From Flavobacteriales bacterium (lineage in GTDB: Bacteria > Bacteroidota > Bacteroidia > NS11-12g > UBA9320), in the NCBI GenBank assembly GCA_020635355.1, contig JACJZW010000012.1, positions 40,836-104,835 of the forward strand: 64,000 nt of DNA, written 5' to 3'. The position numbers and the translations under genes are program-made. The notes beneath the pieces are model-generated. The model did not search any database. It saw only the letters and a list, made by a program, of their open reading frames with translations, and had not been told where the DNA came from. How positions within the stretch are numbered: the first letter of the stretch is position 1; every line of letters begins with the position of its first letter. Positions 10,659-53,728 of the stretch are shown piece after piece.

Positions 10659-10773
10659 AACCCAGACACACCCCATATTTCTTAACTTGTACTTAATATT
10701 AGACGCTGTTGGTAGCTCAATTCGCGTAATGGGTTGATTTTCTTCAAATTTGACTCATAAATAAACGTTAAAG

Positions 10774-11283: not shown

Positions 11284-11285
11284 AC

Positions 11286-12350: not shown

Positions 12351-12358
12351 AATGATTT

Positions 12359-13375: not shown

Positions 13376-13431
13376 AGGGTTTTAAATTTCGTGCAAAGAA
13401 AACGCTTTCCGTTCAAAGGATCAGCGAAAGA

Positions 13432-34507: not shown

Positions 34508-34579
34508 GGCCCCTTCGTCTATCGGTTAGGACGCCAGGTTTTCATCCTGGAAAGAGGGGTTCGATTCCCCTAGGGGCTA
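34508..34579 (+). tRNA. tRNA-Glu (anticodon UUC)
   Basis: A manual cloverleaf gives acceptor GGCCCCT/AGGGGCT (one G-U pair), D-arm GTCT/GGAC, anticodon arm CCAGG-TTTTCAT-CCTGG and T-arm AGGGG-TTCGATT-CCCCT. CCA is not encoded. Confidence 0.85.
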
Positions 34580-34589
34580 CTTAAGGAGA

Positions 34590-38709: not shown

Positions 38710-39468
38710 TTACTGAACCTCTAGTATAATTGGTGACAAGGATCTGATTCCATCCGGCCCTTTGGCACGAATCATATCAATGATGACACGATCACCAGAT
38801 TCACACTGTTGTACCATATCTTTTATTTGACGGTCTATCATATTACCATAAACCTTTTTACTAATAACAGAATCTTTCTGACGTAAATCCAAAACAAATT
38901 GGTATTCTGAAATTTGATAGGACACCCCTTCCAATACAAAACCACTCCCGAGGCTAGCAAAGACCTGCATTTGAGCTAAAAGTGCTGCTTTGGGAACCGG
39001 TATCCCATTGTTTTCAATGGCTCCCCAATGTACCTCAGGTTTCGGGATTGGCCGGACTCTAAAGCTTCTTGTACCAAGTATGATTCTGGAACTATCATTC
39101 AGTACCCGGTATATCCTGAATATGGCCGTACCTCTGTCCCAAACTTTAATCCGATACGAGATTCCCGTATCATGTTGAATGACACCTTTGACACCTTCGA
39201 GTTCTACAAAAAGTTCGGATGATGCTATTCCAGGGATAGCAATAGAAATGGGATTGAAAACTCCCATATACAGTACATCCATAGCATCTGCAGAGACCAC
39301 CACATTGCCGGAGTCAAGATTTTGGGAATTGTCATTAGCAGATGTATCAACGGTAATAGTATAACTAACCTGACCCTTTAAGGTCGGTGCTAAGATGATT
39401 AATAATGCCACCGTTAATGATGTCAGACCAATATGACGTGGGTGTAGTCCGAGGTGTTCAATTCCCAT
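38710..39468 (-). CDS. GldM C-terminal domain paralogue with an N-terminal membrane anchor
   Basis: It has VSADAMDVLYMGVFNPISIAIPG, FRVRPIPKP and a SGDRVIIDMIRAKGPDGIRSLSPIILEVQ ending. These parallel the GldM C-terminal pattern (SADKMNV.YRGV.NPIS, FR.K.IP.P, GD.V.I..I......G....L.......E.Q). One N-terminal TM (LTSLTVALLIILAPTL). The long N-terminal GldM region is absent. Confidence 0.65.
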   Translation of the reverse strand: MGIEHLGLHPRHIGLTSLTVALLIILAPTLKGQVSYTITVDTSANDNSQNLDSGNVVVSADAMDVLYMGVFNPISIAIPGIASSELFVELEGVKGVIQHDTGISYRIKVWDRGTAIFRIYRVLNDSSRIILGTRSFRVRPIPKPEVHWGAIENNGIPVPKAALLAQMQVFASLGSGFVLEGVSYQISEYQFVLDLRQKDSVISKKVYGNMIDRQIKDMVQQCESGDRVIIDMIRAKGPDGIRSLSPIILEVQ

Positions 39469-39587
39469 AGTTGATTGTTGTTTAAATAGGATTGGTCAAT
39501 TTAACAAATCATTTTCAAGAGGTTTAAGCGGTCTGAACTACCAACAGGTTTGTCAGAACGGATATGATCCGCACTTAATAATTCAAA

Positions 39588-41993
39588 TCACAACCTGTTA
39601 CGCATGATCAGAAAACCAACTAACGTCAGGACAATAAGGATGGATATCACCCCAAGGTAATTGAATTTTTTAGGAAGTTGGTAGCCACTGCCGAAGTGGG
39701 TTAACCCCGCCCAAAAGAATGGGTGTTTGTGCCGGTTGGTGATTTCCGGATCTTCGATATACCGACGTTTGGCGTTTTGCAATGCCAATGAACTTTCCTG
39801 ATGATCATGGAGGTTGTTAACAAAGTAATTCGTTAATCGATCCGTTGATAGCTCATTTAACTTCCATAAGGATTGAACCACATTTGTAGAACCGGCTACT
39901 TTAAATGCCCATGCTACACCTGTGATTCCTTCCCCGTTGAATCGCTTGCCTAAACCAACTTCACAAGCCGTGAGCAAGCATAAATTGGATTGAACGGATG
40001 ATTCCATTATTTCATCTACAAAAACCGGTTTGTCGTAGAGGTGAATATATGAAGAACGGTAACTGGAGTCATTGGAGATTCCATGTGTGTGGAGGTGTAG
40101 AATGTTGGTGTTTACATGGGCGGTTAGCAGTTGATGAGAAGTGGCTTCCTGGTTGATGTAGGATTCACCGTTTAATAACCGGGCCGTCGATGTTATCCGA
40201 TTAACGCCCAATTGGAGATTTGGGAGTTTGGTGGAATGGATGTAATCACTGGTGAAACCACAATAGGTAGTAGTGTAATTCGTGATGGAAGAATTTAACC
40301 GTGTGTTTAGTGAAAAATCATAACTAACTGTGCAGCGCCTGATCAAATAGGGCAAATCCCCCCAGTTTTTGCCTGATAAATCCGTTGATAGGGCATCGAA
40401 CTGAATGTATTGCAGGACTCCATCGGGGATAATGATCAGTTTTCTGATGGGTTTATGACCCCTTAAATACGGCTCAACCAGACTTGAAAATAGTTTGTAA
40501 CCAATGCGTTTGTAGTCATTTAACGAGGACGACGGGTTGCTGGCAAGCTGGTGAAATGTTGTGGAAGATTCGGGACTAAAGTCGTTCAATTCATGCATCG
40601 AAACCGAAACATGATCAATGACAAAAACAAAGAGTTGATCACCGTAAATCGAATATTCCAGAATCAATTCACCTTGATTTAAACTGTTCTGTACTTGCTC
40701 AATGTCATGCGAACCAAAATTCTGTGATCCGTCCAATCCAATGTGATGTTCCAAAGAGTCGAGTTGGGACCGGATGTGGGATGAGGAAGTGACATCCCCC
40801 TTATCCCGAAAGTCATAGAGCTGCTTGTTGAGGTCATACCAGAAGGCCAATGTAGGCTCCGGTATGGATGTGTTTTTAAACTTTTTCGAAAGCGATAACC
40901 GTTCGTTCAATACGTTGGATTTGGCGTTATCGGCATAGGTTAATGCTTTCAGAACGTATTTGGTATCTTTACTTTTTAAGAAGAGTGCGTAGGATATCCT
41001 GACACCAAGTTCCAGATTTTCACGTCTGATTTCGTCTATAAAAAACTTGGAGTTGGTGAACTGATATTCGGCGTGAAAATACTGTGCCAGCGATTCGGCC
41101 TTTGTTACCCATTTTAAGGCAAGGTTGTCTTTTTTCAATCGATGGTATACACGTGCCAACAGGTTGTAGGCCGAAAGTAAATAGGCCTCCTTGTAGGAGG
41201 CATCTCCGGCAACGTAAAAATTTAAAAAATCAGTTAGGGTTTCTTCAGCTTTGATCGGTTGGTTGAGATCCAGATACAATTGCGATAAGCGCACCATGGC
41301 GTGCATGCCCTTCCTCGAACCAATTTTCCGTGCATATCCTAGACAATCCAGGTAGGCATCAATGGCCTGTGTACGGTTACCGATACCTTCCAGATAGATC
41401 GCCCGGTTAAATTGATAATACATGGAAAGCTCATCGATTGCCGGATTGGCTGGATTATTCAGTTGTGCCTGTTGCAAGTCAAGGTAGTACTTCGATTTGT
41501 TGTACTGCCCCATGTAGGTATAGGTCGATGAAAATCCGTCATAGAGATCAACCAGACATTCCTGTTGGTGGAACTGTTTAGCCAACTTTATACCGTTTTC
41601 CAGGCTTTGAATGGCAAGTGGATATTCCTGTTGATTTTGATGATACACCGCCCGGTCGATATAGCACCACACCAAGTCGTAGTACGCTTGGGTAGAATCA
41701 TAGTGGAGAGTGAGGTTGGCATTGATTTTTAACGCATTGTCGAAGTCACCAATTCGGGCATAGTCTTGTCCAAGATAATAAGCCACTTTATCAATTATCC
41801 AGTGCTCATTCATGCCTAAGCGGGTTGCTTCCGATAGGCAATAGGTGCGAAATGCGATTCGCTTTGGAATATCAATACCCAGGGAATCCAGTCCCTTGTT
41901 ATAGTGTGATTCGAACGTAACTGAATCAACACCAGTGACGCAGTTTGCTGCGGTAAAACAAAAAGTTATGGCTAGAGCCAGAATTAATCGCAT
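39588..41993 (-). CDS. TPR-CHAT protease with signal peptide and C-terminal transmembrane tail anchor
   Basis: Signal peptide MRLILALAITFCFTAANC, then TPR-like repeats over roughly aa 60-330. The CHAT His/Cys dyad contexts are ILHLHTHG and LLTACEVGLG...GEGITGVAWAF. The C-terminus is LGVISILIVLTLVGFLIMRNRL. Confidence 0.8.
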   Translation of the reverse strand: MRLILALAITFCFTAANCVTGVDSVTFESHYNKGLDSLGIDIPKRIAFRTYCLSEATRLGMNEHWIIDKVAYYLGQDYARIGDFDNALKINANLTLHYDSTQAYYDLVWCYIDRAVYHQNQQEYPLAIQSLENGIKLAKQFHQQECLVDLYDGFSSTYTYMGQYNKSKYYLDLQQAQLNNPANPAIDELSMYYQFNRAIYLEGIGNRTQAIDAYLDCLGYARKIGSRKGMHAMVRLSQLYLDLNQPIKAEETLTDFLNFYVAGDASYKEAYLLSAYNLLARVYHRLKKDNLALKWVTKAESLAQYFHAEYQFTNSKFFIDEIRRENLELGVRISYALFLKSKDTKYVLKALTYADNAKSNVLNERLSLSKKFKNTSIPEPTLAFWYDLNKQLYDFRDKGDVTSSSHIRSQLDSLEHHIGLDGSQNFGSHDIEQVQNSLNQGELILEYSIYGDQLFVFVIDHVSVSMHELNDFSPESSTTFHQLASNPSSSLNDYKRIGYKLFSSLVEPYLRGHKPIRKLIIIPDGVLQYIQFDALSTDLSGKNWGDLPYLIRRCTVSYDFSLNTRLNSSITNYTTTYCGFTSDYIHSTKLPNLQLGVNRITSTARLLNGESYINQEATSHQLLTAHVNTNILHLHTHGISNDSSYRSSYIHLYDKPVFVDEIMESSVQSNLCLLTACEVGLGKRFNGEGITGVAWAFKVAGSTNVVQSLWKLNELSTDRLTNYFVNNLHDHQESSLALQNAKRRYIEDPEITNRHKHPFFWAGLTHFGSGYQLPKKFNYLGVISILIVLTLVGFLIMRNRL

Positions 41994-42021
41994 AAAAAAA
42001 GAGTCCGATAATACGAACTCT
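41994..42021 (-). terminator. intrinsic terminator or attenuator abutting the CHAT start codon
   Basis: The minus strand reads AGAGUUCG-uauuau-CGGACUCU (8 bp, one G-U pair), then UUUUUUU, then directly the ATG at 41993. Confidence 0.5.
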
Positions 42022-42030
42022 TTCTATTTT

Positions 42031-43494
42031 TTACCTCGATCCGAGTTTGGGCTTCCTTTTTCTCAGCAGCCTAAACAGGATAAATCCGACTAGGACACCG
42101 CCAATGAGGGTAAGAACTACCCAAATAATTGGCGGACCAGGAGGTGGCGGAGGAGTTACGGTTTCACAACTTTCCTGGTCACATATTCGATCGGCATATT
42201 TGGATGCCTTTCCCCTGGTGTGATCTTCTAGAAAGCATAATTGATCCCCAATTGGAATAATCATAGGCTGTGTGTAAATGATATTCTCATCATCAAATTT
42301 GATTTCCGCTTTATTACACAGGCAATAACACGTGTCCCGGTTTTCACCTGACATGGAATAGTCGATTGAATTAACAGGGCTGATGCTGGCTTCAAATTCA
42401 ATCCATCCTTTCGTGCTTTCAACCGAATAGTTATTCGGAGATGCCGTACCGTGAAGTAGGGCGCTGGTACCATTACCGCCAATTGTCCATTCATGATAAT
42501 AATTGTTTGACGCAGAGGCTGGTTGATACGATGGTGTCAGGTGATTGAAGTTTGGGGAATAACTGAACGAATTCGGGATCATGGTAAGATACTCGGGTAG
42601 TTTGTCCCGAATCAGAATCTGGGTAGCATCTCCAACATCGGTATTTTGAAAATGAATTCTATATCGGACGCGAGTTTCTTGGGAGAGGGCTGCCGTGGCA
42701 GTGGTGACGTTGATGAAGGGGATGTTGGCCACTTTAAAGTTGGGGTCGTATGGCCCGGCTGTGATGGCAACACTGGTTGAAGAAGGCGGACACTTGATGG
42801 AATCTCCTGTAGTGGTCAATCCACAGGTTGCCAGATCATCGATATTACCTGAGACATCAAATTTGACAATGGCATAGGCATTATTGGATTGCATGGTCCA
42901 CGACTTGTCGAAGGTAAGCTGGTTGGGAGATGACCCTATAGATGAGAATTGATTCGAATATAACAACACAGGATTACTCAACGTTTGAGAGTAGGTGATG
43001 CTGTATGAAACAATGCCTTCCTGTCCGCAGTTGGGCAACGGAACAATCAGGTAAACATCTTTCCCAAATTTGGGTTCAGGGAGGTAGCGTATGGTGTGGT
43101 TGGAAATGGTTACCGGAGGACAATTGGAGGTGCATGCCGGAACATTTAACACCTGACAGTTTACCGAGATGGTTGGTGTAGACTCGGGCTTTTTCCGTGG
43201 TACCAGCACCAGGGTCACATCGTGTGTACCTGAAGTAGCAAAATGAAAAATTGGTTCTTCTTCACTGCTGATGTTACCTTCATCGGTATACCACATGTAC
43301 TCATATCTTTCCGCATTTGGATCGGTGGAGTATTCGTACAGATTTGGAGGGGTGATTTTGAATTGATACCCTCCGTTCATGGGCGTGAATTCAATTGAAG
43401 GAGGAGGTGGTGGTGGATCCCCAAATGAACTGAAGGCGCCGAGAAACATCCCCAGAAATACCAGGTATGTACGGACAAAGAATGATGATTTCAT
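42031..43494 (-). CDS. PKD-like / conserved-repeat envelope protein with C-terminal TM tail anchor
   Basis: The ATG at 43494 gives signal peptide MKSSFFVRTYLVFLGMFLGAFSSFG followed by PPPPPPS. A PKD-like segment (YMWYTDEGN...FATSGTHDVTLVLVP) and a DUF11-like segment (YRIHFQNTDVGDATQILIRDKLPEYL) follow. The C-terminus is PPPPPGPPIIWVVLTLIGGVLVGFILFRLLRKRKPKLGSR. Confidence 0.55.
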   Translation of the reverse strand: MKSSFFVRTYLVFLGMFLGAFSSFGDPPPPPPSIEFTPMNGGYQFKITPPNLYEYSTDPNAERYEYMWYTDEGNISSEEEPIFHFATSGTHDVTLVLVPRKKPESTPTISVNCQVLNVPACTSNCPPVTISNHTIRYLPEPKFGKDVYLIVPLPNCGQEGIVSYSITYSQTLSNPVLLYSNQFSSIGSSPNQLTFDKSWTMQSNNAYAIVKFDVSGNIDDLATCGLTTTGDSIKCPPSSTSVAITAGPYDPNFKVANIPFINVTTATAALSQETRVRYRIHFQNTDVGDATQILIRDKLPEYLTMIPNSFSYSPNFNHLTPSYQPASASNNYYHEWTIGGNGTSALLHGTASPNNYSVESTKGWIEFEASISPVNSIDYSMSGENRDTCYCLCNKAEIKFDDENIIYTQPMIIPIGDQLCFLEDHTRGKASKYADRICDQESCETVTPPPPPGPPIIWVVLTLIGGVLVGFILFRLLRKRKPKLGSR

Positions 43495-43587
43495 ATTTGA
43501 TGTTTTGGTTAAGTAAATAGCGGTAACACTCAAATATAGATAGAATTGCCTGATATTAGGAGAGTTACCAAATAGGTTGCAGAATGA

Positions 43588-45726
43588 TCAGAGTTTAATG
43601 AATTTCATGGACGTTACCTTGGGTCCACTGCTGAACCGGATGATGTATATTCCTTCTGAAAGGGCGTTCACATCAATGCTATGTTGTCCGGAGGGTGCCT
43701 TACCTGATGCGTGAATCACACCCTGAATATCTGTAATCTGAAAGTTGGCCTTCTCGTTCAGGTCCAACAACAGAATGTCCTTTACCGGATTTGGGTAGGC
43801 CTTAATCTGTAATGCCGGAACAGGTTGTTTGATTCCTGAAACCTCCATGGATCGCTTCCAGATACCACAATCGGTACCAGCGTATATGAAATCACCATCA
43901 AAAGCAAAGGAGCGAACATTAATCTGATTGCAGTACCATTGGTTATTCTCATCTTTAAAACCCTGGTTAAAGGTGAACCAGTGTGCACCATTATCCTCCG
44001 ATATCAAAACGCCGGCACCTTCTGTTCCCGCGTACACATGGGCGGCATCATGGGTTATCGCATACACCGGTTTATCCAGAAAGGCGGAGGTACTTGATGT
44101 AACCCAGTTTGCACCGTTGTCCAATGAGTGATATAAAACAGGCAAGCCGGATATATTACCGGCAAAAAGCGCATCGCCGTTTCCATCAATGGTCTGAATA
44201 TAATCTGACGAGGAAACCATGGTGTTGGAGGTAAGGGTCCAGTTGACGTTATCCACGTCGGTTTTCCATACGCCTTCCCCGTACGTTCCAGCATACAGTG
44301 TGTTGCCATCAACAAACAACGACCTGATGTGATTTTCCTGTAATCCGGTGTTGAAGTTGGACCAGGTGGCTGAACTGATGTTGGTCAACGATGAAACATA
44401 GATGCCATCACCTTGTGATCCAATGTAGATTTTATCACTGTATACCGCAAGATCCCGTATGTCTGAAGTGGAATTGAAATTAGTAGGGGTTATGTCTGTC
44501 CAGGATGCCCCCATATCGGCAGATTTGTACACACCTGCGTTAGAACCTCCGGTGCCAATGAACAGATTACCATCATGTGCCACCATTGAATACACCCTAG
44601 GGTTTGTTAATCCACCGTTTCGCTGAGTCCACGAAGCACCTTGATCCGCAGACATATACACTCCACCGTTGGTGGCTCCTGCAAAGATCGTGGTGCCGAT
44701 GGTTTCAAGCGCCCAAATCGAACCGTTTGGTGGTGTGCTGGTTTGAACCCACTGTGTTTGGAGCTCCTCATAACTGACCGATTCCCAGTGATAGGCAAAT
44801 AGTTTTTCCTGATTGTGGTCATACTCTATTCCGTACAAGTTGTCTGAGGTATTGGCCAGACCAACATCAATTTTATTATTCTGGTTTCCGTTTGACATGT
44901 CAAGATGAACCACGGAATATTCTCCCGGGCTTCTGCGGTACAGATAGATAAATTCCTGGTTCACTTCATCAATGGTTCCGCTACCATCAGCGGATGCATC
45001 CGTTGTTCCTGTTCCAATGGTAGTGAAGGCGGCAGTTTCCGGGTTGATCTCGATGAGATGGTATTTCCCGGTACCGTTATCCTGCAGGAATCCGTACAAG
45101 GTACCGGTAGAATTATCGTAATCAATGTGCATGATATTCTGACTGACCGTCCCGGTGGCCAGGGATATGGTTGAGTTGTAGATAATTGTCCCATCCGAAA
45201 CATCGATCGAATAGAGGATGGGAGACGAACCGGAATTAGGAGCGATAAACGTAAACACTTGATTGGTTTCATCAAAGGCGCTTGGGTTTCCAACGTACAC
45301 GGCAGAACTTGGAATTGAATTGCCGATGCGTGCGGTGGATCCATTTACCTGATTGATGGAAACCAGATATTTTACCCCATTCGGATTGTCCTGTTCAAGT
45401 CCATACAACGTGTTGGTTGCATTGCTGTATTGGAAGGTGCTAATGGAAATACCCAACGGAGGGTTGTATTGGGTGCTGCCATCTGAGGTATTCACAGAAT
45501 ACAGTCGTATGCCATCGTCACTGGAGTTTGAACTGTTTAGAATAAATCTTCCATTGTTTTGATCAAAGGTCCGTTCATTGGGATAGATCCAGGTGAGTCC
45601 TTCTACCTTCGGACCCGTTTTGATGATGGTTTCGTTTGCGAGGTCAAATTCAATTACAAATTCGCCTTGTCCAAAAACGGACAAGCTTAACATTAAGCAA
45701 ATTGAGAGTTGAGTGAGCTTTTTCAT
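43588..45726 (-). CDS. Asp-box beta-propeller protein with T9SS type A C-terminal sorting domain
   Basis: Signal peptide and a repetitive N-terminal half (YSVNTSDGST, YSIDVSDGTI, LDMSNGNQ). Asp boxes include SADQGASWTQ, SADMGASWTD, SLDNGANWVT and SEDNGAHWFT. The CTD reads YPNPVKDILLLDL...GIYIIRFSSGPKVTSMKFIKL. Confidence 0.7.
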   Translation of the reverse strand: MKKLTQLSICLMLSLSVFGQGEFVIEFDLANETIIKTGPKVEGLTWIYPNERTFDQNNGRFILNSSNSSDDGIRLYSVNTSDGSTQYNPPLGISISTFQYSNATNTLYGLEQDNPNGVKYLVSINQVNGSTARIGNSIPSSAVYVGNPSAFDETNQVFTFIAPNSGSSPILYSIDVSDGTIIYNSTISLATGTVSQNIMHIDYDNSTGTLYGFLQDNGTGKYHLIEINPETAAFTTIGTGTTDASADGSGTIDEVNQEFIYLYRRSPGEYSVVHLDMSNGNQNNKIDVGLANTSDNLYGIEYDHNQEKLFAYHWESVSYEELQTQWVQTSTPPNGSIWALETIGTTIFAGATNGGVYMSADQGASWTQRNGGLTNPRVYSMVAHDGNLFIGTGGSNAGVYKSADMGASWTDITPTNFNSTSDIRDLAVYSDKIYIGSQGDGIYVSSLTNISSATWSNFNTGLQENHIRSLFVDGNTLYAGTYGEGVWKTDVDNVNWTLTSNTMVSSSDYIQTIDGNGDALFAGNISGLPVLYHSLDNGANWVTSSTSAFLDKPVYAITHDAAHVYAGTEGAGVLISEDNGAHWFTFNQGFKDENNQWYCNQINVRSFAFDGDFIYAGTDCGIWKRSMEVSGIKQPVPALQIKAYPNPVKDILLLDLNEKANFQITDIQGVIHASGKAPSGQHSIDVNALSEGIYIIRFSSGPKVTSMKFIKL

Positions 45727-45771
45727 TGTACCATTTAAAATTGTTATACTGTGCTTTTACTGAATGGTACA
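45727..45771 (-). promoter_or_regulatory. 9-bp perfect inverted repeat abutting the start codon of the 43588-45726 gene
   Basis: TGTACCATT (45727-45735) and AATGGTACA (45763-45771) are separated by a 27 nt spacer. On the mRNA the proximal arm ends at the A of the ATG. Confidence 0.45.
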
Positions 45772-45890
45772 TCTGCAGACAAAAACATAACATGAGTTGT
45801 GTCTTTACGGGTGGCTCGTTGTGCATGAAAGAATTTTTCTCTTACTCCAATGCGCATTAATTTGTTAGAAATTTTTGTTCTGAAGTACAA

Positions 45891-46475
45891 ATGTTCAGGA
45901 AGCGGCAGAAAATAGATGATGACACGCTGGTGTCATGGATTCGGATTGGTGAATCACGCTTGAACGATGCCACAAGGCAACTTATACTTGAGTACGGACC
46001 TAAGGTGAAATCCTATCTTGAGAAACTCAGTAACAGTCGGGAAGAATCCGAAGATGCCTTCTATGAAGGACTGGCTGCGTTACTGTTAAATGTTCGTAAC
46101 GGAACGTACAAAGGACAAAGTAGTCTGGGGACCTACCTAACCTCTATTTGTAAGGGTATTTGGTTTAAAAAGTATAAGCGAATGATGGTACATCAGAAGT
46201 GGGAGGAATCCGAAATGGCAGAAGGTCAGGTGATTTATACAGAAACGGTCTTGACAAAGGAACTTCGTCATAATCTGGAATTTCTGTTGGATGGACTGAA
46301 GGATAAATGCAGAGAAGTCCTGAACTTGTGGGCTTACAGTTACTCTATGTCGGAAATCGCCCAAATGCTTGCATACAGCAGTCCACAAGTTGTCATGAAT
46401 AAAAAAAACTTGTGTCTGAAGGAGTTGAGAAAAATCCTTGCTGACAATCCTAAAGTGGCCGAACTTTTTGACTAA
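45891..46475 (+). CDS. ECF-type sigma-70 family RNA polymerase sigma factor
   Basis: 194 aa. Region 2-like EDAFYEGLAALLLNV...LGTYLTSICKGIWFKKYKR and region 4 HTH CREVLNLWAYSYSMSEIAQMLAYSSPQVVMNKKNLCLKELRKIL. Confidence 0.8.
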   Translation: MFRKRQKIDDDTLVSWIRIGESRLNDATRQLILEYGPKVKSYLEKLSNSREESEDAFYEGLAALLLNVRNGTYKGQSSLGTYLTSICKGIWFKKYKRMMVHQKWEESEMAEGQVIYTETVLTKELRHNLEFLLDGLKDKCREVLNLWAYSYSMSEIAQMLAYSSPQVVMNKKNLCLKELRKILADNPKVAELFD

Positions 46476-47203
46476 TGGAAGAACGCTGGACACAACTAAT
46501 TGAACGTTTTTTCGACAACGCATTAAGCGATGCCGATGCGATTGAGTTTGATCAACTTTTCGAAAATGATGAAGCATTTAAGAAAGAGGTCCTGCTAACC
46601 GAGCGTGCCATAAAGGTCACAAAACTCAATGCTCAAAAAGAACTCACTGATAAAATTCGAGCCTTGGATCATTCACTTCGGTCACGATCCGGAACTTCAT
46701 GGATACGCGCAGCAGTGGCAGTGATTATAGTTGGATTCGTTGGTCTGGTGTTTTATGCTCAACGGTTTAACAATGACAACCTTTATAGTAGCAGTTTTTC
46801 ACCGTTAGCTGATGAAATTACCAATTTAGACGACTCAATCACGGATTTGGAACAGGCCATTTCGTTTTATAACCTTTTCGATTACAATGAAGCAGCATAT
46901 CGGTTTAAGTCTATTATGGATACTGATCCGGATAATCAAACGGCTGCTTTTTATTATGGCAATTGTTTGTTGCTCATGGATGATTATCAAAATGCGCTTG
47001 GAGTTTTCGAATCATTAAATGACATGTATTATTGGGAGGGGCAATGGTATCTGGCTTTAACCTATTTGAAGTTGAACCAGGAAGATAAGACGAAAGAAAT
47101 TTTAAGTCGAATTGTTCGTGAGTCAGATGATGAGGCCATCATCAACCGTGCATCTCATCTTCAAAAATCCCTAAATAGCCCGCTTAGAAAGTTAGCCTTC
47201 TGA
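46475..47203 (+). CDS. putative anti-sigma factor: cytoplasmic N-domain, one TM, periplasmic TPR domain
   Basis: Its start overlaps the sigma gene stop (TAATG). TM helix WIRAAVAVIIVGFVGLVFYA, then TPR-like repeats (YNLFDYNEAAYRF, FYYGNCLLLMDDYQNALGVF, WYLALTYLKLNQEDKTKEIL). Confidence 0.6.
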   Translation: MEERWTQLIERFFDNALSDADAIEFDQLFENDEAFKKEVLLTERAIKVTKLNAQKELTDKIRALDHSLRSRSGTSWIRAAVAVIIVGFVGLVFYAQRFNNDNLYSSSFSPLADEITNLDDSITDLEQAISFYNLFDYNEAAYRFKSIMDTDPDNQTAAFYYGNCLLLMDDYQNALGVFESLNDMYYWEGQWYLALTYLKLNQEDKTKEILSRIVRESDDEAIINRASHLQKSLNSPLRKLAF

Positions 47204-47318
47204 GCCTTTGCTCATTGGCAATTATTTTGATTTCCAGGATTTTTCCCGGCCTTGACGCACTGCCCTCCGTGTTGACCCGATATCCATTTTTAATTTTCAT
47301 GTTAGGTTTTGGTAAACC

Positions 47319-47403
47319 AATGGTACAAAGCTGTAAAAACCATTCAAATCAGGAGTAAATCCTCAGTACTCAGATTGAATGAAGAACAACTTAAAGTACC
47401 ATT
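47319..47403 (+). promoter_or_regulatory. 8-bp inverted repeat of the same word abutting the start codon of the 47404-49440 gene
   Basis: AATGGTAC(A) at 47319-47327 and GTACCATT at 47396-47403 are separated by a 68 nt spacer. The proximal arm ends one base before the ATG at 47404. Confidence 0.45.
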
Positions 47404-49440
47404 ATGAAAAAAACAAGAACAGTATTAGGAGTATTATTTCTGCTAAGTACTTACCTCTCGTCAAATGCGCAGCAAAAGTCTTTAGATGGCTTTACACCTG
47501 GGCTTCCGGGACATTCGGTAACCATTTATACGGGTCCATCATTTCCAATTGGTAAGTTCAGAGAGTTTGCGAAGTTGGGCCTTAATCTTGGTGTCTCCGC
47601 TGATTATGCCCAGTCTGCACATTTTGGCTGGGGGCTAGACATTAACCGCCAAATCAATTCGTTTAAATGGCCAAATTCCTACCTCAATCTTCCCGAGACG
47701 GGAACAGGACCCAATTATACAATTACTGCGGTTCAAAGTAGAAGCGGTTGGGCAACCACCACCTTGGGTATTGGACCGTGGTGGCGATTTACACCATCTG
47801 CGTCTTCATCGTTTTCCTATACTCTTTATACTAAAGCTGGGGTAAGCACGGTAAAATCACCAAGTGCGTCATCTACCTTAAATTATGTCAACATTCAATC
47901 CGGATTGTTATTTAATATGCCAGCACAACGCAAGACCGCATTTGGAGTAACAACGGGAGCACGGTTCTATTTTGGTGTGGGTCAAAATCTGAATTTCTTT
48001 ATCAACCCACAGTATGTCTATACGTCTGCCAAGATAATCTATGAGTATCGAGATCTCACAAATGCATATCCCAGAGGTTCGTTTAATGCGGGATTGGCTT
48101 TGGAGTCACCGATGGTGGAGGAGTATGTTACTCCAAATTATTTCAACCTCAATGTTGGTTTAACCTATACGCCTAAGGCCAAAAATCGAAAACCAGCAGC
48201 ACTCGTGCTGAAGTATCCAGAAAACGGTGCCGTATATCAGGCGGGAAAGCCGTTTAAACACTTTAAGTGGAAACATGTGAATCCCCAACCTGGTGTTCCG
48301 GCCATGTACAAAGTAGTGGTGACCTCATTATCCCGAAATCCTCAATCGTTTACCGCCTACACATCCAGCTCTCAGGTTTCGTTTGAAGAAGTTTTTAAAG
48401 GAGCAAAGATGGACGGGAAATATACCTGGACGGTTACCGAGGTTAATTCGGGGTTGAAGTCAACACCATTCACGCTTAAGACAATTCAATCAGGTTTGGA
48501 TATTCAACTTCAGAACATTTCATGTGTGGATCCGGCTTTCGATAACCAGGGAAAGGTGCATTACACCGGACAAGTGCTGCTGAGCAATTCTGCCAACAAT
48601 ACCGGTGCGATCACCATAGAAAACACCCCGTTTATTCTTCAGAATCTGGATGGGACGTCACCGGTGAATGCCACTTTTGTTGCTTGTCCAGGTACAGGAA
48701 CCGTGTATCAACCCGGTGTGTTGAACCCCAATACTTCAGTTACCGCTTGCATCGCTTTCACTCGTCCAATAGGTGCGTCACAAGCATTGGTGGAAGTGAT
48801 GTATCACAATAATAATGCACCGGCAATCAGCATGAATGAAGTGTCTTTGGATAGTTTGCCCAACTGCGTATGCACCATGTGTGATGATTGGAAGATTGAT
48901 GTGACAAAGGCTCAGGTTTCTGCTATCGCGAGTGATCGGGCAAATGCCTCCATTACCCAGGATATCACCATCTCAGGTTCGTCCAATATTAAAAAGTTGA
49001 AAGCCGAAATCATTTATATGAACCAGGACGTAAATTATCCTGATTGCTACACATGTACCAAACATGATGATCAGATGGGGCTTTTCAGCCGGTTTGGCAA
49101 TTCAGGAATGATAACCACTCAATCATCCAAATGGCAAAACGATGGCATGGGCGAGTTGTTTGACGAGAATCAGGATGACTATGGCAACAGCTTTACATGG
49201 TGTGCAAGTGATCCGGATGGGGTAGATTTTTCTTCAAGTCAACGGCTCAAGCTGCTCATAAATCTACCTGGAATCCGGGGTTTGGATTGTTGCACCGGCA
49301 CGTACACCGTGTGTGTGCGATACACCTTCACAGATGTCCAATGCAAGTCATGTTCCTATGTGCGATGCTACTCACTGAAGTCCGATCTTAAGTCAGGTGA
49401 GGTATCCGAAACATCCGAGGATCAAACTCCAAAGAACTAG
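47404..49440 (+). CDS. secreted protein: N-terminal OMP-like beta-barrel region, Ig-like middle, Cys-rich C-terminal module
   Basis: Signal peptide (LFLLSTYLSSNAQQ). Roughly aa 30-255 show amphipathic strands ending in aromatics (FGVTTGARFYFGV, NFFINPQYVYT, YFNLNVGLTYTP). The C-terminal module carries NYPDCYTC and CC-x6-C-x9-C-x2-C-x4-C. Confidence 0.5.
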   Translation: MKKTRTVLGVLFLLSTYLSSNAQQKSLDGFTPGLPGHSVTIYTGPSFPIGKFREFAKLGLNLGVSADYAQSAHFGWGLDINRQINSFKWPNSYLNLPETGTGPNYTITAVQSRSGWATTTLGIGPWWRFTPSASSSFSYTLYTKAGVSTVKSPSASSTLNYVNIQSGLLFNMPAQRKTAFGVTTGARFYFGVGQNLNFFINPQYVYTSAKIIYEYRDLTNAYPRGSFNAGLALESPMVEEYVTPNYFNLNVGLTYTPKAKNRKPAALVLKYPENGAVYQAGKPFKHFKWKHVNPQPGVPAMYKVVVTSLSRNPQSFTAYTSSSQVSFEEVFKGAKMDGKYTWTVTEVNSGLKSTPFTLKTIQSGLDIQLQNISCVDPAFDNQGKVHYTGQVLLSNSANNTGAITIENTPFILQNLDGTSPVNATFVACPGTGTVYQPGVLNPNTSVTACIAFTRPIGASQALVEVMYHNNNAPAISMNEVSLDSLPNCVCTMCDDWKIDVTKAQVSAIASDRANASITQDITISGSSNIKKLKAEIIYMNQDVNYPDCYTCTKHDDQMGLFSRFGNSGMITTQSSKWQNDGMGELFDENQDDYGNSFTWCASDPDGVDFSSSQRLKLLINLPGIRGLDCCTGTYTVCVRYTFTDVQCKSCSYVRCYSLKSDLKSGEVSETSEDQTPKN

Positions 49441-49463
49441 TTAACCAATTAAGCAATTACAAA

Positions 49464-51074
49464 ATGAAACATACATACATCAAGCACGGAGTTTTAAGAA
49501 GACTACCGTTGTTAATCGGATATATTCTGTTGAATGCAGGTTTTACCCAAGCAAAGTGTTACCAGGAAGCTGCGAGTTGTGATACCATCGAAAATTTTGA
49601 ATCCTATCAAGGAAATCAACCCGGGAGTTGGACTGGCATCAATCACAGCGGAATCCGAACGGTCAAGCGGAATGGGAGCACCGCATTAAATGCAGTTGAT
49701 GGAAGCGGAGCGTCATGGTTATACAACAATCAGATTTTTCCTAAAAATCTGGTTGCTGACCGACGCTGTGAATTTCGATATGATGTGGAATACATTGCGG
49801 GCAGTTCCAATAGCCTCACGACCTCCAGAAGTATTACCATTTACAACGGTCCGGACCCTGCTAATTCCAGTTTTAAAGCGAGTTTTGTGCTCAATACGGC
49901 CAATCAGGTTGTTTCAGGTAGCGGACCTCATACCATAGTAGTGCCACTTGAACTTGCAGATGAGACCACATTGACCCTACCTTCTAATTCATTCGGATCA
50001 TGGTACATCTCGCCCGGCGGAACATACACGCTGACCCAAATTCAGGCATTTAACAGTTGTATACAGAACACCACCGGACTGGCATTCTTTCTGGATGAAG
50101 GGGCCAATCCAGCAGAACAATGGTGGTTTGATAATTTTACCATTTGCACGTGTGAGGCACCATGTTCGGCTAGCACCTGCTGCCAGACCAATCTTGATAT
50201 TTACAATGCTGCCGGGACTCCCAACCCACTTCCAATCACCCAAACCGTTGTGAATGGTACCGTCGTGTCCATGGCTCAGGAAACTTACGTCGTGCATAAG
50301 GATGCCGTAATGCCAATAACGGAAATGCGTGTGGTTGTCACCGACATCCAATTCGTAACGAACTATGAAGGGTGTGTTCAATGTATGAACCAACCCCTTC
50401 AATGGGGCACATTAATGGGAGGCAATAAGGTAATTGGGGAAAAAGGTCTTTACCTTCAGGAATCAGTCCCCAATACAGGTAATAGCGGGCAATCCGATGG
50501 TAACTTCAGGGAAGTTGCTTGGTCTAGTTCCAGAGGAGCTATGCTCCAATCAGGGGATCAAGTTGAGGTGCGATATATCTTACCTCCGGCATCGGATATT
50601 CCGTGTTGCGCAACATCCGTGAAGATTTGTTCTAAAATCGTCTGGAAAGATGCCAATTGTAACATGTGCGAGGTGCCTACTTGTTCTGTGATTGATCTTT
50701 CTACGAAGGATGTCGGGGAATCCTGTGATTGTAAAGACGGGACCAAATTTGTTTTCGTTCGCGGATTGAATAATTCCACTCCAACGGGCAGCCGGATTAT
50801 AAACTGCGGATCTACCATTTCAGGTAAAATGAAAGGTGGAAGCCTCACCTTTACAGGACCGGTCGTGAGTTGTTCTCCAGCCAATTGTAGTGCTCATTAT
50901 AAATGGGAAATACTAAAGGATGGGAAGGTGCAGCAATCTGGAACAGGTAGGAATTTTAGTTACGACTTCAAAGGACTCTCAAGGCGAAGTGAAAAGTACA
51001 CCATTCGGTTTTCACCTGATTGCGGTGGAAAGAATTGTTCGGCTTGTGAAATCAATTTGAATCTATCGCGATAA
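49464..51074 (+). CDS. secreted Cys-rich protein sharing a module with the preceding gene product
   Basis: Signal peptide (LPLLIGYILLNAGFTQA). It carries NYEGCVQC, then IPCCATSVKICSKIVWKDANCNMCEVPTC with the same Cys spacing as the upstream protein. More Cys pairs follow at the C-terminus. Confidence 0.5.
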   Translation: MKHTYIKHGVLRRLPLLIGYILLNAGFTQAKCYQEAASCDTIENFESYQGNQPGSWTGINHSGIRTVKRNGSTALNAVDGSGASWLYNNQIFPKNLVADRRCEFRYDVEYIAGSSNSLTTSRSITIYNGPDPANSSFKASFVLNTANQVVSGSGPHTIVVPLELADETTLTLPSNSFGSWYISPGGTYTLTQIQAFNSCIQNTTGLAFFLDEGANPAEQWWFDNFTICTCEAPCSASTCCQTNLDIYNAAGTPNPLPITQTVVNGTVVSMAQETYVVHKDAVMPITEMRVVVTDIQFVTNYEGCVQCMNQPLQWGTLMGGNKVIGEKGLYLQESVPNTGNSGQSDGNFREVAWSSSRGAMLQSGDQVEVRYILPPASDIPCCATSVKICSKIVWKDANCNMCEVPTCSVIDLSTKDVGESCDCKDGTKFVFVRGLNNSTPTGSRIINCGSTISGKMKGGSLTFTGPVVSCSPANCSAHYKWEILKDGKVQQSGTGRNFSYDFKGLSRRSEKYTIRFSPDCGGKNCSACEINLNLSR

Positions 51075-51199: not shown

Positions 51200-52357
51200 T
51201 TACAGCGTTCCCCGCTTGGCTTGTTCAGCTTCGATGGATTCGAACAAGGCCTGGAAGTTTCCTTTCCCGAAGGACTGCGCGCCTTTTCGTTGGATGATTT
51301 CAAAGAAGAGGGTTGGTCTATCCGTAAGGGGTTTGGTGAAGATCTGTAGGAGATAGCCTTCGTCGTCCCGGTCCACCATAATACCATGTTTTTTAAGCAA
51401 TTCGAGGTCTTCGGCTATTTCGCCCACCCGGTCGGCTACGGTGTCATAATACGTACCCGGAACATACAGAAACTCAATTCCTCGTTTGTTCATCTCACTC
51501 ACGGTAAAGACAATATCATCGGTTGCAACGGCGATGTGCTGACAACCGGGGCCGTTATAAAAGTCCAGGAACTCCTCCACCTGAGATTTCTTAATGCCTT
51601 CTGCCGGTTCATTAATCGGGAATTTAATCCGACCATTTCCATTCGTCATCACCTTGCTCATCAATGCGGTGTATTGAGTTGAAATGTCCTTATCATCAAA
51701 TGTGATCAAATTGGCAAAACCCATTGTTTCAGCGTAGAACTTGGCCCACACATTCATCTCGCCCCAGCCCACATTGCCCACCATGTGGTCAATGTATTTT
51801 AATCCGCATGAAGTGGGATTGTAATGGGAGTTCCACTTTTCGAATTGAGGAAGAAAGACACCGTTATAGTTTTTGCGTTCAACAAAGACGTGTATAGTAT
51901 CTCCATATGTCCGGATGGCGGAGCGAACAACGGTTCCGTCGTTGTCGGATTCCTCATACGGCTCAAAGTATGAATCCGCTCTCCTGCGGGTAGTTTCTTC
52001 CCATGCTTTCCGGGCATCATCAACCCAAAGGGCAATGGTTCTGACCCCATCTCCATGTTTGCTGATGTGCTTGGCAACTTCACTTTCCCTGCCATCGGGC
52101 ATTGGAGTGGTAAACACTAATTTGATCTTATCCTGAACCACTACGTAGGATGTGCGGTCACGCAATCCTGTTTCCAATCCGGCGTATGCCAAAGACTGAA
52201 AGCCCAGGGCTGTCTTGTAAAAGTGTGCAGCTTGTTTGGCATTGCCAACATAATATTCAACGTAATCTGTCCCAAGAATGGGTAGGAAGTCGTCGGCTTC
52301 GGGGAAGATTTTTTCTAATCCGTAATTGAAGTTTTGTACGGTTTTCAAGTCTTTCAT
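51200..52357 (-). CDS. hppD: 4-hydroxyphenylpyruvate dioxygenase
   Basis: 385 aa. The two-barrel VOC architecture, GTDYVEYYVGNAKQAAHFY, the QHIAV metal ligand context and a C-terminal FFEIIQRKG...GNFQALFESIE motif. Confidence 0.9.
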   Translation of the reverse strand: MKDLKTVQNFNYGLEKIFPEADDFLPILGTDYVEYYVGNAKQAAHFYKTALGFQSLAYAGLETGLRDRTSYVVVQDKIKLVFTTPMPDGRESEVAKHISKHGDGVRTIALWVDDARKAWEETTRRRADSYFEPYEESDNDGTVVRSAIRTYGDTIHVFVERKNYNGVFLPQFEKWNSHYNPTSCGLKYIDHMVGNVGWGEMNVWAKFYAETMGFANLITFDDKDISTQYTALMSKVMTNGNGRIKFPINEPAEGIKKSQVEEFLDFYNGPGCQHIAVATDDIVFTVSEMNKRGIEFLYVPGTYYDTVADRVGEIAEDLELLKKHGIMVDRDDEGYLLQIFTKPLTDRPTLFFEIIQRKGAQSFGKGNFQALFESIEAEQAKRGTL

Positions 52358-52368
52358 AGCTGATATAA

Positions 52369-53538: not shown

Positions 53539-53728
53539 TGCAGCGTCTTTTTGTTCGAGGTTGATGTACGCGTGCAAAGGAAGTCCGGTGGCTACTCAAA
53601 AAAGATGATGAGGTGTTCGGCAGAATATGATTTTGGTCAGGACAATCGAACGAATGATAGATCCCGATGTTCATGAACATCGATTCACTCAATTGAATGG
53701 AAATGGTTCGACTCCGATATATGAACGT

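Follow-up and report, generated by a model that had tools for sequence, protein, structure and literature searches.

Does a membrane-tethered, caspase-like protease control a sigma factor at the envelope of Bacteroidota? In type III-E CRISPR systems the Craspase, consisting of Cas7-11 and the TPR-CHAT protein Csx29, links a TPR-CHAT protease to a sigma factor, as Csx29 cleaves Csx30, which is bound to an ECF-like sigma factor. The stretch of DNA analysed here, 64 kb in length and hereafter referred to as the window, raises the question anew: a gene for a TPR-CHAT protein with export and anchor signals lies close to genes for an ECF-type sigma factor and a putative anti-sigma factor. The initial annotation had grouped these and the adjoining genes into a single envelope module of eight genes. 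All eight open reading frames were recovered with the same coordinates, and searches with Pfam/NCBIfam-type family models agree with the labels they had been given:

38710..39468, minus strand: paralogue of GldM domains 3-4, 252 aa (GldM_3rd 45.8 bits, GldM_4th 44.8 bits)
39588..41993, minus strand: TPR-CHAT caspase-like protease, 801 aa (Pfam CHAT and TPR)
42031..43533, minus strand: DUF7619/PKD-like/DUF11-repeat exported protein, directly upstream of CHAT
43588..45726, minus strand: T9SS cargo with BNR/Asp-box-like propeller, 712 aa, first gene of the minus-strand operon
45891..46475, plus strand: ECF-type sigma factor, 194 aa (TIGR02937, Sigma70_r2)
46475..47203, plus strand: anti-sigma-like protein, 242 aa (TPR_6/TPR_19 matches, predicted transmembrane segment)
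47404..49440, plus strand: outer-membrane beta-barrel fused to Ig-like, Cys-containing domains, 678 aa (AF2, Foldseek)
49464..51074, plus strand: Cys-rich exported protein, 536 aa (Cys count, pairing with the 678-aa gene)

Membrane segments were predicted by hydropathy scan and are present in all four proteins that had been described as anchored in the inner membrane, namely the CHAT, PKD-like, GldM-like and anti-sigma-like proteins. A conserved topology, with the bulk of the protein predicted to be periplasmic, pertains to the CHAT and anti-sigma-like proteins.

Conservation of three of the eight genes

A locus search with CHAT alone returned a single distant locus, and the sigma alignment was used instead. 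With this alignment as query, 189 relatives were found among species-representative genomes, and 76 non-redundant Bacteroidota loci (denoted by L and a number) were gathered with the sigma factor alone as query. The TPR-type anti-sigma gene and CHAT occur together in 44 of the 76 loci, at a sigma-CHAT distance with a median of 980 bp and a maximum of 5 kb, nine loci contain the anti-sigma gene only (six of these on contigs that end early), and 19 contain neither. Thus CHAT is found within 5 kb in 44/53 loci with this anti-sigma type versus 4/23 without it (Fisher p = 8e-8, 76 loci). Among the four CHAT loci lacking the anti-sigma gene, three contigs end right after sigma and L030 has at this position a 250-aa gene that did not cluster with the anti-sigma family; conversely, L020, L032 and L079 possess this anti-sigma type and no CHAT, despite at least 4.6 kb on both sides. 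In relatives the genes are kept together at identities of 55% (sigma), 37% (anti-sigma), 31% (DUF7619) and 33% (CHAT).

Bacteroidota are rich in TPR proteins and, according to the ECF classification paper (PMC7826278), whose main text nowhere mentions CHAT, in ECF sigma factors, with a mean of 22.5 per genome, so that abundant TPR-CHAT genes and ECF sigma pairs might have become neighbours by coincidence. Such an origin is contradicted by the conservation statistics, considering that the association persists from 58% down to 23% sigma identity and across several orders, and we regard it as extremely improbable. The tight co-occurrence across Bacteroidota instead supports the functional link that had been proposed between CHAT, the sigma factor and the anti-sigma-like protein. 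The eight-gene module was on the other hand not borne out, as clustering of all neighbour genes identified the sigma, anti-sigma and CHAT families as the only ones conserved family-wide. Furthermore, the CHAT gene is convergent with the anti-sigma gene in many clades, placing it outside the sigma operon while still adjacent, an arrangement easier to reconcile with a partner than with a mere output of the sigma factor.

The loci were also inspected for single-chain fusions of the type known from Myxococcus DdvA, described below, and none was found: the candidate in L026 consists of an anti-sigma N-terminus and a TonB-receptor-like ORF, and that in L068 carries cytochrome c.

The sigma factor and the anti-sigma-like protein

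The sigma factor matches TIGR02937 with 56 bits over residues 26-181 (cut-off 42.9) and Sigma70_r2 with 24.9 bits (cut-off 24), and is small with only the sigma-2 and sigma-4 regions, as in ECF (group 4) members of the sigma-70 family. Homologues at 46-58% identity were aligned (alignment A1), and the protein belongs to a distinct subfamily from Bacteroidota, in which region 4 carries the conserved motif QVVMNKKNLCLKELR.

The downstream gene starts within the sigma stop codon, with which its start codon shares 1 nt. Its orthologues (32-37% identity) invariably reside directly 3' of sigma, an arrangement conserved in 63 loci and congruent with a cognate, co-transcribed anti-sigma factor, a function that we infer for the product of 46475-47203. 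The protein is predicted to comprise about 75 residues in the cytoplasm, a single membrane segment at residues 77-95 (nt 46703-46759) and, in the periplasm, some 140 aa of TPR domain; the membrane segment and the TPR domain are conserved among relatives, and conservation of the juxtamembrane linker is only moderate. The N-terminal pattern IExYLxGxLSxxExxxF is reminiscent of a zinc-less anti-sigma domain, and neither Cys nor His is present at the positions corresponding to the HxxxCxxC zinc motif (alignment A5). Weak zf-HC2 matches were obtained for 7/18 members of the anti-sigma family (best E 0.003); the N-terminus of the window protein gave no match to anti-sigma family models, zf-HC2 included, and nothing relevant in a profile search of the PDB.

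A sister sigma subfamily is devoid of CHAT, and its anti-sigma bears a periplasmic trypsin-like protease domain of its own (L049, Trypsin_2, E 1e-21). Thus, a periplasmic protease seems integral to this sigma/anti-sigma lineage.

The TPR-CHAT protein

The CHAT domain (PF12770) is recognised with 129.4 bits and an E-value of 2e-37 (cut-off 24), and spans residues 496-769. It is preceded by a signal-like N-terminus and approximately 11 TPR-like helical hairpins, and followed by a C-terminal transmembrane helix with a basic tail. The signal peptide of the initial annotation was recovered by hydropathy as a signal-like segment at residues 4-22, and the C-terminal helix at 779-797 (nt 39603-39659). 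Both ends, basic tail included, are present in nearly all CHAT homologues, pointing to a predicted periplasmic location. As the C-terminal helix begins fewer than 10 residues past the CHAT domain, anchoring through it would place the catalytic domain next to the membrane. The protein was also considered as a lipoprotein and this was rejected, since Asn precedes the Cys and there is consequently no lipobox.

The catalytic residues were located as follows:

40086..40088, minus strand: codon of catalytic His636 (LHLHTHG)
39966..39968, minus strand: codon of catalytic Cys676 (LLTACEVG)

The His/Cys dyad context claimed from the sequence is real and intact, with both residues invariant in 55/55 distinct CHAT ORFs adjoining this sigma family. 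These proteins share only 20-35% identity elsewhere, and the preservation of the dyad and its surrounding motifs hence argues for retained catalysis; the CHAT protease is probably active and correctly placed, as judged from conservation and predicted topology. The same preservation weighs against a non-proteolytic role, in which CHAT would serve as a co-anti-sigma factor or scaffold whose TPR array binds the anti-sigma TPR domain or a ligand and gates a conventional site-1 protease. Such a role would be compatible with the periplasmic TPR arrays of both proteins, tethered to the same membrane, and with the bulky TPR-CHAT part of DdvA, which sterically blocks RseP, but we judge it improbable given the retained catalytic motifs.

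An AF2 model of the CHAT protein (pLDDT 83.6, pTM 0.78) was compared with known structures using Foldseek. Csx29 ranked first by structure (E 1e-13, TM-score up to 0.59), and separase as well as DdvA (8rw5/8rot, E 1e-10) were also retrieved, congruent with a TPR-CHAT fold of the separase/Csx29 type. Searching the PDB by sequence, with either the CHAT family or the domain as query, yielded only generic TPR proteins and weak Csx29 matches (E 0.01-0.2).

Exported proteins encoded next to the trio

Immediately upstream of CHAT there is in every case a gene for an exported product, the identity of which depends on the clade: a T9SS cargo, a tail-anchored DUF7619 protein, a subtilisin or a double-glycine-leader peptide. 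In the window this position is taken by the DUF7619/PKD-like gene, with a likely start at the ATG at 43494 (487 aa, as in the public record). Its product matches the DUF11 repeat TIGR01451 with 29.3 bits (cut-off 24), and PKD_3 and DUF7619 weakly, under the Pfam cut-offs. Hydropathy reveals a segment at residues 16-34 and a transmembrane segment at 469-487. The DUF7619 family exists in two forms, ending in a T9SS sorting domain or in a Cys-rich segment and a C-terminal transmembrane helix; in the window protein, which has a signal-like N-terminus, the sorting domain is replaced by a Pro-rich linker, a transmembrane segment and a basic tail. L002-L012 and L091 have orthologues (31-33% identity) in the corresponding place, and conservation of this gene is limited to the nearest clade.

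The propeller protein, encoded further upstream, has a T9SS type A sorting domain (Por_Secre_tail/TIGR04183/PF18962, 45.8 bits, cut-off 23), identifying it as T9SS cargo, and weak BNR, Reg_prop and F510_1955 matches. Downstream of CHAT, at a distance of 119 nt, the GldM-like gene encodes a protein with an N-terminal transmembrane segment (residues 12-30) that reaches 72.7 bits against TIGR03517 (cut-off 180) and covers model positions 322-513 of 524. It is hence a C-terminal paralogue rather than a full four-domain GldM/PorM protein. Homologues of the GldM-like and propeller proteins were found neither in the 87 fetched loci, iterated local HMMs included, nor in L091 and L093, and by these searches both genes are lineage-specific. 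Membership of the GldM-like gene in the system is thus unsupported by conservation.

On the plus strand, the AF2 model of the 678-aa protein (pLDDT 72.9, with block means mostly of 75-95 over residues ~38-255) substantiates the proposed barrel fusion, as residues ~38-255 match OmpW, OmpA, NspA, Ail and OmpX and are followed by Ig-like domains. The 536-aa protein deserves its Cys-rich label, with 25 Cys (4.7%), and shares a Cys-rich domain with the C-terminus of the 678-aa protein. Neither protein matches any family in the family-model searches, and iterated local HMMs of the two found nothing in the 87 loci; the 678-aa family was recovered only by a large protein search. A homologue of the 678-aa protein (P0064, 41% identity) lies inside the sigma/CHAT cluster of another genome, L091, and segments homologous to the 536-aa protein directly follow the 678-aa homologue on its 3' side in L091 and L093. 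Judged by these homologues, the two genes recur as an accessory pair, in one case within a related cluster.

A shared DNA motif and the candidate regulon

The motif TGTTAK-N15/16-GTAC(T)AA precedes the sigma gene and both flanking operons, at the following sites:

45767..45791, minus strand: GTTATGTTTTTGTCTGCAGATGTAC, 40 nt upstream of the ATG of the propeller gene (operon of propeller, DUF7619 and CHAT)
45864..45888, plus strand: GTTAGAAATTTTTGTTCTGAAGTAC, ending 2 nt before the sigma ATG
47301..47326, plus strand: GTTAGGTTTTGGTAAACCAATGGTAC, 77 nt upstream of the 678-aa gene

Five matches exist in the window, three of which fall in the three intergenic regions of the cluster, and the 13-mer CATGTTAKGTTTT has exactly two copies in the 64 kb, upstream of the 678-aa gene and of the propeller gene. 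The motif is equally placed before sigma in L003, L010, L013, L014, L015, L017 and L091, lies 20-24 nt upstream of the DUF7619 gene in L002, L003, L007, L010 and L091, and in L091 also precedes the operon of the OmpA/678-aa homologue. Its orientation always matches that of the gene, in the window as well as in the independent genomes. No such motif was found upstream of the GldM-like gene, and a generic promoter and terminator scan returned counts no different from shuffled sequence. We consider the motif a putative promoter element of the sigma factor; at the sigma gene itself, with the motif ending 2 nt before the ATG, a transcription start at normal distance from the -10 element would fall inside the ORF. 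The motif-bearing genes encode surface, outer-membrane or T9SS proteins, and the module appears to control neighbouring surface-protein genes.

The presence of CHAT within a motif-bearing operon in the clade of the window means that it could simply be an output of the sigma factor, i.e. a periplasmic maturation or quality-control protease for its exported neighbours, with the anti-sigma factor sensing something else. CHAT is indeed the last gene of a motif-preceded operon and always follows a gene for an exported protein (window, L003, L007, L008, L010 and L091), and the product of the upstream partner gene is invariably exported. However, these partner genes are non-homologous between clades, whereas the adjacency of anti-sigma and CHAT is constant. 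Where CHAT is convergent, as in many clades, no sigma-type motif is seen upstream of it; a housekeeping-like box, TATCTT[TG], is enriched there instead (17/50 loci versus about 3 expected). The CHAT-less sister subfamily moreover fuses the protease to the anti-sigma itself. Together with these observations, we find it rather unlikely that CHAT is a mere output.

The candidate regulon also bears on a role in defence, where TPR-CHAT would recognise a phage or competitor protein and turn on a defence regulon in the manner of DdvA/DdvS. This closest characterised analogue controls a CBASS-CRISPR island (PMC11506125), and a coupling between CHAT/caspase proteins and ECF sigma factors is a prediction for conflict systems (PMC8195603) and was shown for the type III-E Craspase. 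In the window, however, the eight proteins gave no match to PADLOC defence models except for one weak generic TPR match, no repeat or CRISPR-like array was detected across the 64 kb, the genes flanking the cluster are housekeeping genes, and the motif-bearing genes encode the surface, outer-membrane and T9SS proteins above rather than known defence effectors. A sensor of invaders is therefore, to our judgement, a poor candidate with a small chance of being correct.

A tethered protease as proposed regulator of the anti-sigma factor

The initial annotation had named three outcomes that would speak against a proteolytic switch: a lack of co-occurrence outside this genome, a missing dyad, and neighbours lying outside the regulon. 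As far as sequence can tell, all three turned out in favour of the idea. Gene content, conservation, dyad, predicted topology, fold and shared motif, established by computation, are best explained by a conserved three-part, envelope-spanning signalling module of Bacteroidota in which tethered CHAT controls the anti-sigma factor, a reading in which we place about even confidence.

In such a module, the approximately 75 cytoplasmic residues of the anti-sigma factor would hold the sigma factor, while CHAT would be exported via its N-terminal signal-like segment and kept at the periplasmic face of the inner membrane by its C-terminal helix. Upon a periplasmic cue, the tethered CHAT would cut, or otherwise inactivate, the periplasmic part of the anti-sigma factor; we infer cleavage of the site-1 type. 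Intramembrane proteolysis would follow and free the sigma factor, which may then transcribe the motif-bearing units, i.e. its own operon, that of propeller, DUF7619 and CHAT (possibly including the GldM-like gene), and that of the barrel and Cys-rich proteins. The exported product encoded directly upstream of CHAT is a candidate ligand or substrate. More tentatively, CHAT may be a dedicated site-1 protease triggered by this cognate exported product, whether a T9SS cargo in transit, a tail-anchored DUF7619 protein or a double-glycine-leader peptide.

Relation to known systems

The established scheme of regulated intramembrane proteolysis is that of RseA, cut by DegS and then by RseP. The window trio resembles it in two respects: the single-pass anti-sigma factor has a periplasmic domain, and the candidate site-1 enzyme is a periplasmic protease tethered to the membrane. 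This candidate, encoded by the locus itself, differs from DegS, a PDZ-containing serine protease, in being a caspase-like Cys enzyme with an array of TPRs as sensor. The likeness to the Craspase is the TPR-CHAT protease, whose target there holds an ECF-type sigma. That system is cytoplasmic, activated by an RNA guide and encoded with cas genes, whereas the window is without an array and, as the initial annotation correctly noted, without cas genes, no cas-like match being found among the eight proteins, and its CHAT protein has export and anchor signals.

To our knowledge, a connection of a periplasmic TPR-CHAT protein to an ECF sigma factor has been studied only in the case of DdvA. No characterised system with such an architecture had been recognised at the outset; the closest one is nevertheless Myxococcus DdvA/DdvS, to which the window trio seems related, as an uncharacterised version with its parts split. 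DdvA is an anti-sigma factor that carries a TPR-CHAT domain in the periplasm, proposed to be its own site-1 protease that clips the membrane-adjacent linker before RseP acts, cleavage still being a hypothesis, and DdvA-like proteins have been reported only from Myxococcota and one Comamonas species (PMC11506125). Common to both are an ECF sigma under a single-pass anti-sigma factor, an inner-membrane-tethered periplasmic TPR-CHAT with a His-Cys dyad (in the window as predicted), a similar fold and the same proposed logic of CHAT as site-1 protease ahead of intramembrane cleavage. Unlike in DdvA, anti-sigma and TPR-CHAT are encoded by two genes, both in the window and in each of the 58 loci with CHAT, CHAT is anchored by a C-terminal helix, and the anti-sigma factor has its own small TPR domain and no CHCC zinc site. 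The host phylum is Bacteroidota, and the regulon appears to be of the surface/T9SS rather than the CBASS/CRISPR kind.

In the conflict systems predicted by Kaur et al. in 2021, comprising caspase, EACC2, ECF sigma and TPR (DUF1822) components, genes for an ECF sigma, a TPR protein and a protease of the caspase superfamily are likewise associated, and protease-triggered transcription was proposed (PMC8195603). These differ by their EACC2 coiled-coil/TRADD-N contexts and variable effectors; no such domains were detected here, and the proteins of the window are predicted to be periplasmic and membrane-anchored.

Implications for Bacteroidota

In DdvA, the protease proposed to make the first cut is part of the same polypeptide as its substrate. 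In the split form the presumed protease and its presumed substrate are two proteins, making a cleavage test straightforward, and tractable hosts may exist, as the module is present in MAGs assigned to genera with cultured members (Mariniphaga, Reichenbachiella). The candidate promoter and regulon of surface/T9SS proteins are likewise defined and testable. If correct, the model would provide the first function for a large unannotated class of Bacteroidota TPR-CHAT proteins. Viewed alongside the sister subfamily and its trypsin fusion, it suggests that this sigma lineage is generally designed around a dedicated periplasmic protease, whether separate or fused. Should the exported product encoded upstream of CHAT be the trigger, the module would constitute a circuit for tuning the cell surface that is coupled to secretion or senses a self-signal, a pathway widespread in Bacteroidota.

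Genes of the cluster and their surroundings

All eight open reading frames that the initial annotation had placed at 38710-51074, and regarded as a single envelope module, were recovered exactly at the coordinates given there, and family searches upheld the labels it had assigned to them.

The eight genes of the cluster, with the outcome of the family searches
38710-39468 (-), GldM-like gene; matches GldM domains 3 and 4 only (model positions 322-513 of 524), below the equivalog cut-off
39588-41993 (-), TPR-CHAT protein; CHAT, 129 bits
42031-43533 (-), PKD-like/DUF7619 gene; weak PKD_3 and DUF7619 matches, one DUF11-type repeat
43588-45726 (-), propeller gene; T9SS type A sorting domain, weak BNR/propeller matches
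45891-46475 (+), ECF-type sigma factor; TIGR02937, 56 bits
46475-47203 (+), anti-sigma-like TPR protein; start codon overlaps the sigma stop codon
47404-49440 (+), 678-aa gene; without any family match
49464-51074 (+), 536-aa gene; without any family match

The membrane topology proposed earlier was likewise reproduced by a hydropathy scan of the window proteins, with an N-terminal helix in the GldM-like protein, a signal-like N-terminal stretch and, at the C-terminus, a helix with basic residues behind it in both the PKD-like and the CHAT proteins, and a single helix at residues 77-95 of the anti-sigma-like protein. The description of the 678-aa protein as a barrel fusion was borne out by an AF2 model, in which the well-predicted N-terminal beta-domain matches OmpW, OmpA, NspA, Ail and OmpX and is followed by Ig-like domains.

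The flanks of the cluster are of a housekeeping nature, comprising GAPDH, a tRNA-Glu(TTC) upstream (34508-34580) and, directly downstream, the tyrosine-catabolism genes for 4-hydroxyphenylpyruvate dioxygenase and homogentisate 1,2-dioxygenase (51200-53577). Two further contigs, L088 (assembly GCA_020437705.1) and L089, encode a CHAT protein identical to that of the window and have the same 4-hydroxyphenylpyruvate dioxygenase flank. Three more T9SS cargo genes lie outside the cluster (29981-31441, 53729-55114 and 55228-56709). Por_Secre_tail is the sorting domain of one of them, and the other two have CHU_C sorting domains together with PKD, Ig-like or IgGFc-binding domains.

Conservation of the sigma factor, anti-sigma factor and CHAT protease

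Full-length orthologues of the window CHAT protein are few (33-35% identity), and NCBIfam holds no model for it. The contigs carrying these orthologues repeat four genes, a sigma and anti-sigma pair divergent from a DUF7619 gene and then CHAT, with identities to the window proteins of 55%, 37%, 31% and 33%, respectively. In a search independent of CHAT, the sigma family was aligned (alignment A1) and the loci of the best 80 of 189 relatives were fetched from species-representative genomes; sigma identity ranged from 58% down to 23%, and the taxa included Saprospiraceae, Chitinophagaceae, Prolixibacteraceae/Mariniphaga, Bacteroidales, Flavobacteriales, Cyclobacteriaceae and others. Protein families were then defined by clustering all ORFs against each other and by iterated local profiles. 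Only three are conserved across the fetched loci: the sigma factor (86 loci), this type of anti-sigma factor (63) and CHAT (58).

Regarding the neighbourhood conservation that the initial annotation had put forward as a check, sigma, anti-sigma and CHAT genes co-occur in 44 of the 76 non-redundant Bacteroidota loci, the remainder holding the anti-sigma type only (9), CHAT only (4) or neither (19; Fisher p = 8e-8 for co-occurrence of anti-sigma type and CHAT). The contigs end early at six of the nine anti-sigma-only loci, and directly after sigma at three of the four loci with CHAT only; at the fourth, L030, sigma is followed by a 250-aa gene that falls outside the anti-sigma family in the clustering. 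The median distance between sigma and CHAT is 980 bp, which corresponds to the length of the anti-sigma gene alone.

As to the accessory genes, DUF7619 is restricted to the nearest clade, and no homologues of the GldM-like and propeller genes were found in any of the fetched loci. The 678-aa and 536-aa genes, the products of which have a homologous Cys-rich domain in common (in the C-terminal part of the former), occur as a pair, found again in two further genomes (window 47404-51074; L091:10001-14617; L093:10001-14115). In L091, where sigma is 57% identical, the pair sits within the sigma/CHAT cluster; its neighbour in L093 is a HisKA_3/GerE two-component system, not the sigma/CHAT module. 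The initial interpretation is partly borne out: what is real and conserved is the trio with its predicted envelope topology. The full set of eight is not conserved as a unit. Duplications were also observed: a Bacteroidetes MAG (L010:5759-17648) holds two complete tandem copies of the unit CHAT, DUF7619, sigma and anti-sigma, each with a different DUF7619 form, and a Saprospiraceae locus (L001) has two CHAT and two sigma genes within 13 kb.

Anatomy of the protease and the anti-sigma factor

The CHAT dyad, previously judged intact in the window protein, is retained in 55 of 55 distinct CHAT proteins adjoining this sigma family, within the motifs hLHhxxHx (His) and hLSACxxG (Cys). Nearly all of the homologues also display the signal-like N-terminus and the C-terminal helix followed by Lys/Arg, an arrangement that under the positive-inside rule predicts a periplasmic location for the bulk of TPR-CHAT regardless of whether the N-terminal segment is cleaved. 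As the CHAT domain ends less than 10 residues before the anchor, the active site would lie near the surface of the membrane. AF2 modelled the window protein with confidence (pLDDT 83.6, pTM 0.78), the best structural matches being separase, Csx29 of the type III-E Craspase and DdvA, an anti-sigma factor of Myxococcus.

In the anti-sigma family, one helix at about residues 75-105 (172-190 in one clade) is followed by approximately 140 residues of predicted periplasmic TPR. The N-termini have the common pattern IExYLxGxLSxxExxxF and resemble zinc-less anti-sigma domains, but the matches to domain models are weak. One locus, L026, has a 983-aa ORF after the sigma gene (10585-13536), the first ~95 residues of which, including a TM helix, are like the anti-sigma N-terminus; further along it has a CarboxypepD_reg domain (from ~243), a Plug domain and the barrel of a TonB-dependent receptor. 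This ORF represents either an unusual fusion or an artefact of assembly or ORF calling.

A shared motif in the intergenic regions

Common to intergenic regions in the nearest clades is a bipartite, asymmetric motif, TGTTA(K)nTTT-N11-13-GTAC(T)AA, which always has the orientation of the downstream gene. The simple pattern GTTA-N17/18-GTAC has 5 matches in the 64 kb of the window, a count close to the approximately four that chance would give. Three of these matches belong to the cluster, whose three intergenic regions have one each: the first is 2 nt ahead of the sigma ATG, the second 40 nt ahead of the propeller gene and the third 77 nt ahead of the 678-aa gene. The exact 13-mer CATGTTAKGTTTT is common to two of these sites. 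The motif is absent upstream of all three T9SS cargo genes outside the cluster. In L091, an independent genome, it lies upstream of sigma, of the DUF7619 operon, of a 195-aa gene, of the operon of OmpA and the 678-aa homologue, and of a 1083-aa gene, and in L013-L018 it is found ahead of sigma and ahead of an operon whose last gene is CHAT.

Judged by sequence, we read this motif as the cognate ECF promoter, in which case the flanking operons would be regulon members, and the neighbouring genes plausibly are. The notion of one module would then be partly rescued at the level of regulation, though not as a conserved gene unit. The geometry at the sigma gene is peculiar: the motif ends 2 nt before the ATG (window 45864-45893, GTACAAATG), a layout repeated in at least seven other loci, and with the GTAC box so near, a start site at normal distance downstream would, if GTAC is a -10 element, fall within the reading frame. 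This could be accounted for by a leaderless transcript of unusual geometry, by a shorter isoform of sigma, for which candidate starts are a GTG at codon 14 and, in many relatives, a Met near codon 15-16, or by a non-promoter role at this position.

A different element, TATCTT[TG], is located upstream of, and near, the CHAT start codons in 17 of 50 distinct loci (for example L017, L039, L056 and L082), many of them from one clade, an approximately six-fold enrichment. It resembles the Bacteroidota housekeeping -7 promoter box, and the enrichment suggests that CHAT often has its own constitutive promoter.

Exported partners and the role of the protease

In the main rival explanation, CHAT matures or degrades the product of the gene just upstream of it. 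This product is always an exported one but varies by clade. In the nearest clade the partner is DUF7619 (window 42031-43533; L008:4925-6376; L002:1768-3144; L010:13776-15236), ending either in a T9SS sorting domain or in a Cys-rich stretch, C-terminal membrane helix and basic tail; both forms stand next to each other in L002 and L091. Other partners are an LRR-subtilisin T9SS cargo, a GEVED or SdrD_B cargo and, in Prolixibacteraceae/Mariniphaga, a ~75-aa peptide whose leader is of the double-glycine type (..EMNNLRGG) and whose core, PPLPPSGGEDFPI, is conserved. The peptide gene (L081:14580-14867, minus strand) is divergent from a C39-peptidase ABC exporter (L081:15185-17401, plus strand) and HlyD-like gene, with the same layout in L043, L055, L056, L064, L067 and L087, and the peptide may be a signal or substrate of the module. 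Such partners could just as well act as the trigger ligand of the switch.

Two observations favour a regulatory role over pure output. In many clades CHAT and the anti-sigma gene converge, which places CHAT outside the sigma operon and yet always adjacent. Moreover, a sister sigma branch without a CHAT gene has an anti-sigma protein of ~355-378 aa with its own predicted periplasmic, trypsin-like serine protease domain (Trypsin_2, E 1e-21; family f15, L049:10526-11602, also L053, L063, L072, L078 and L086), so that protease and anti-sigma factor are fused there instead of being two genes.

No description of the Bacteroidota trio was found in the searchable literature. The initial annotation knew of no characterised system with this architecture; a fused characterised analogue does however exist, DdvA/DdvS (PMC11506125). 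DdvA of Myxococcus is an anti-sigma factor with TPR-CHAT as its periplasmic domain, and its authors propose as a hypothesis that CHAT clips the juxtamembrane linker in trans, whereafter RseP would finish the process (PMC11506125). The window locus would work alike but is not a member, as anti-sigma and TPR-CHAT are not fused here. The likeness is looser to Craspase (Csx29, Csx30 and an ECF-like sigma factor), the window locus being without cas genes and not cytoplasmic, and to DegS/RseP proteolysis of anti-sigma factors, the candidate site-1 enzyme here being a caspase-like Cys protease; it belongs to neither system. A defence role like that of DdvA finds no support in the gene content. The model with the best support is a split version of DdvA/DdvS, in which the anti-sigma factor and TPR-CHAT, here two separate proteins, would be tethered to one membrane face, and CHAT, we infer, would cleave the anti-sigma factor.
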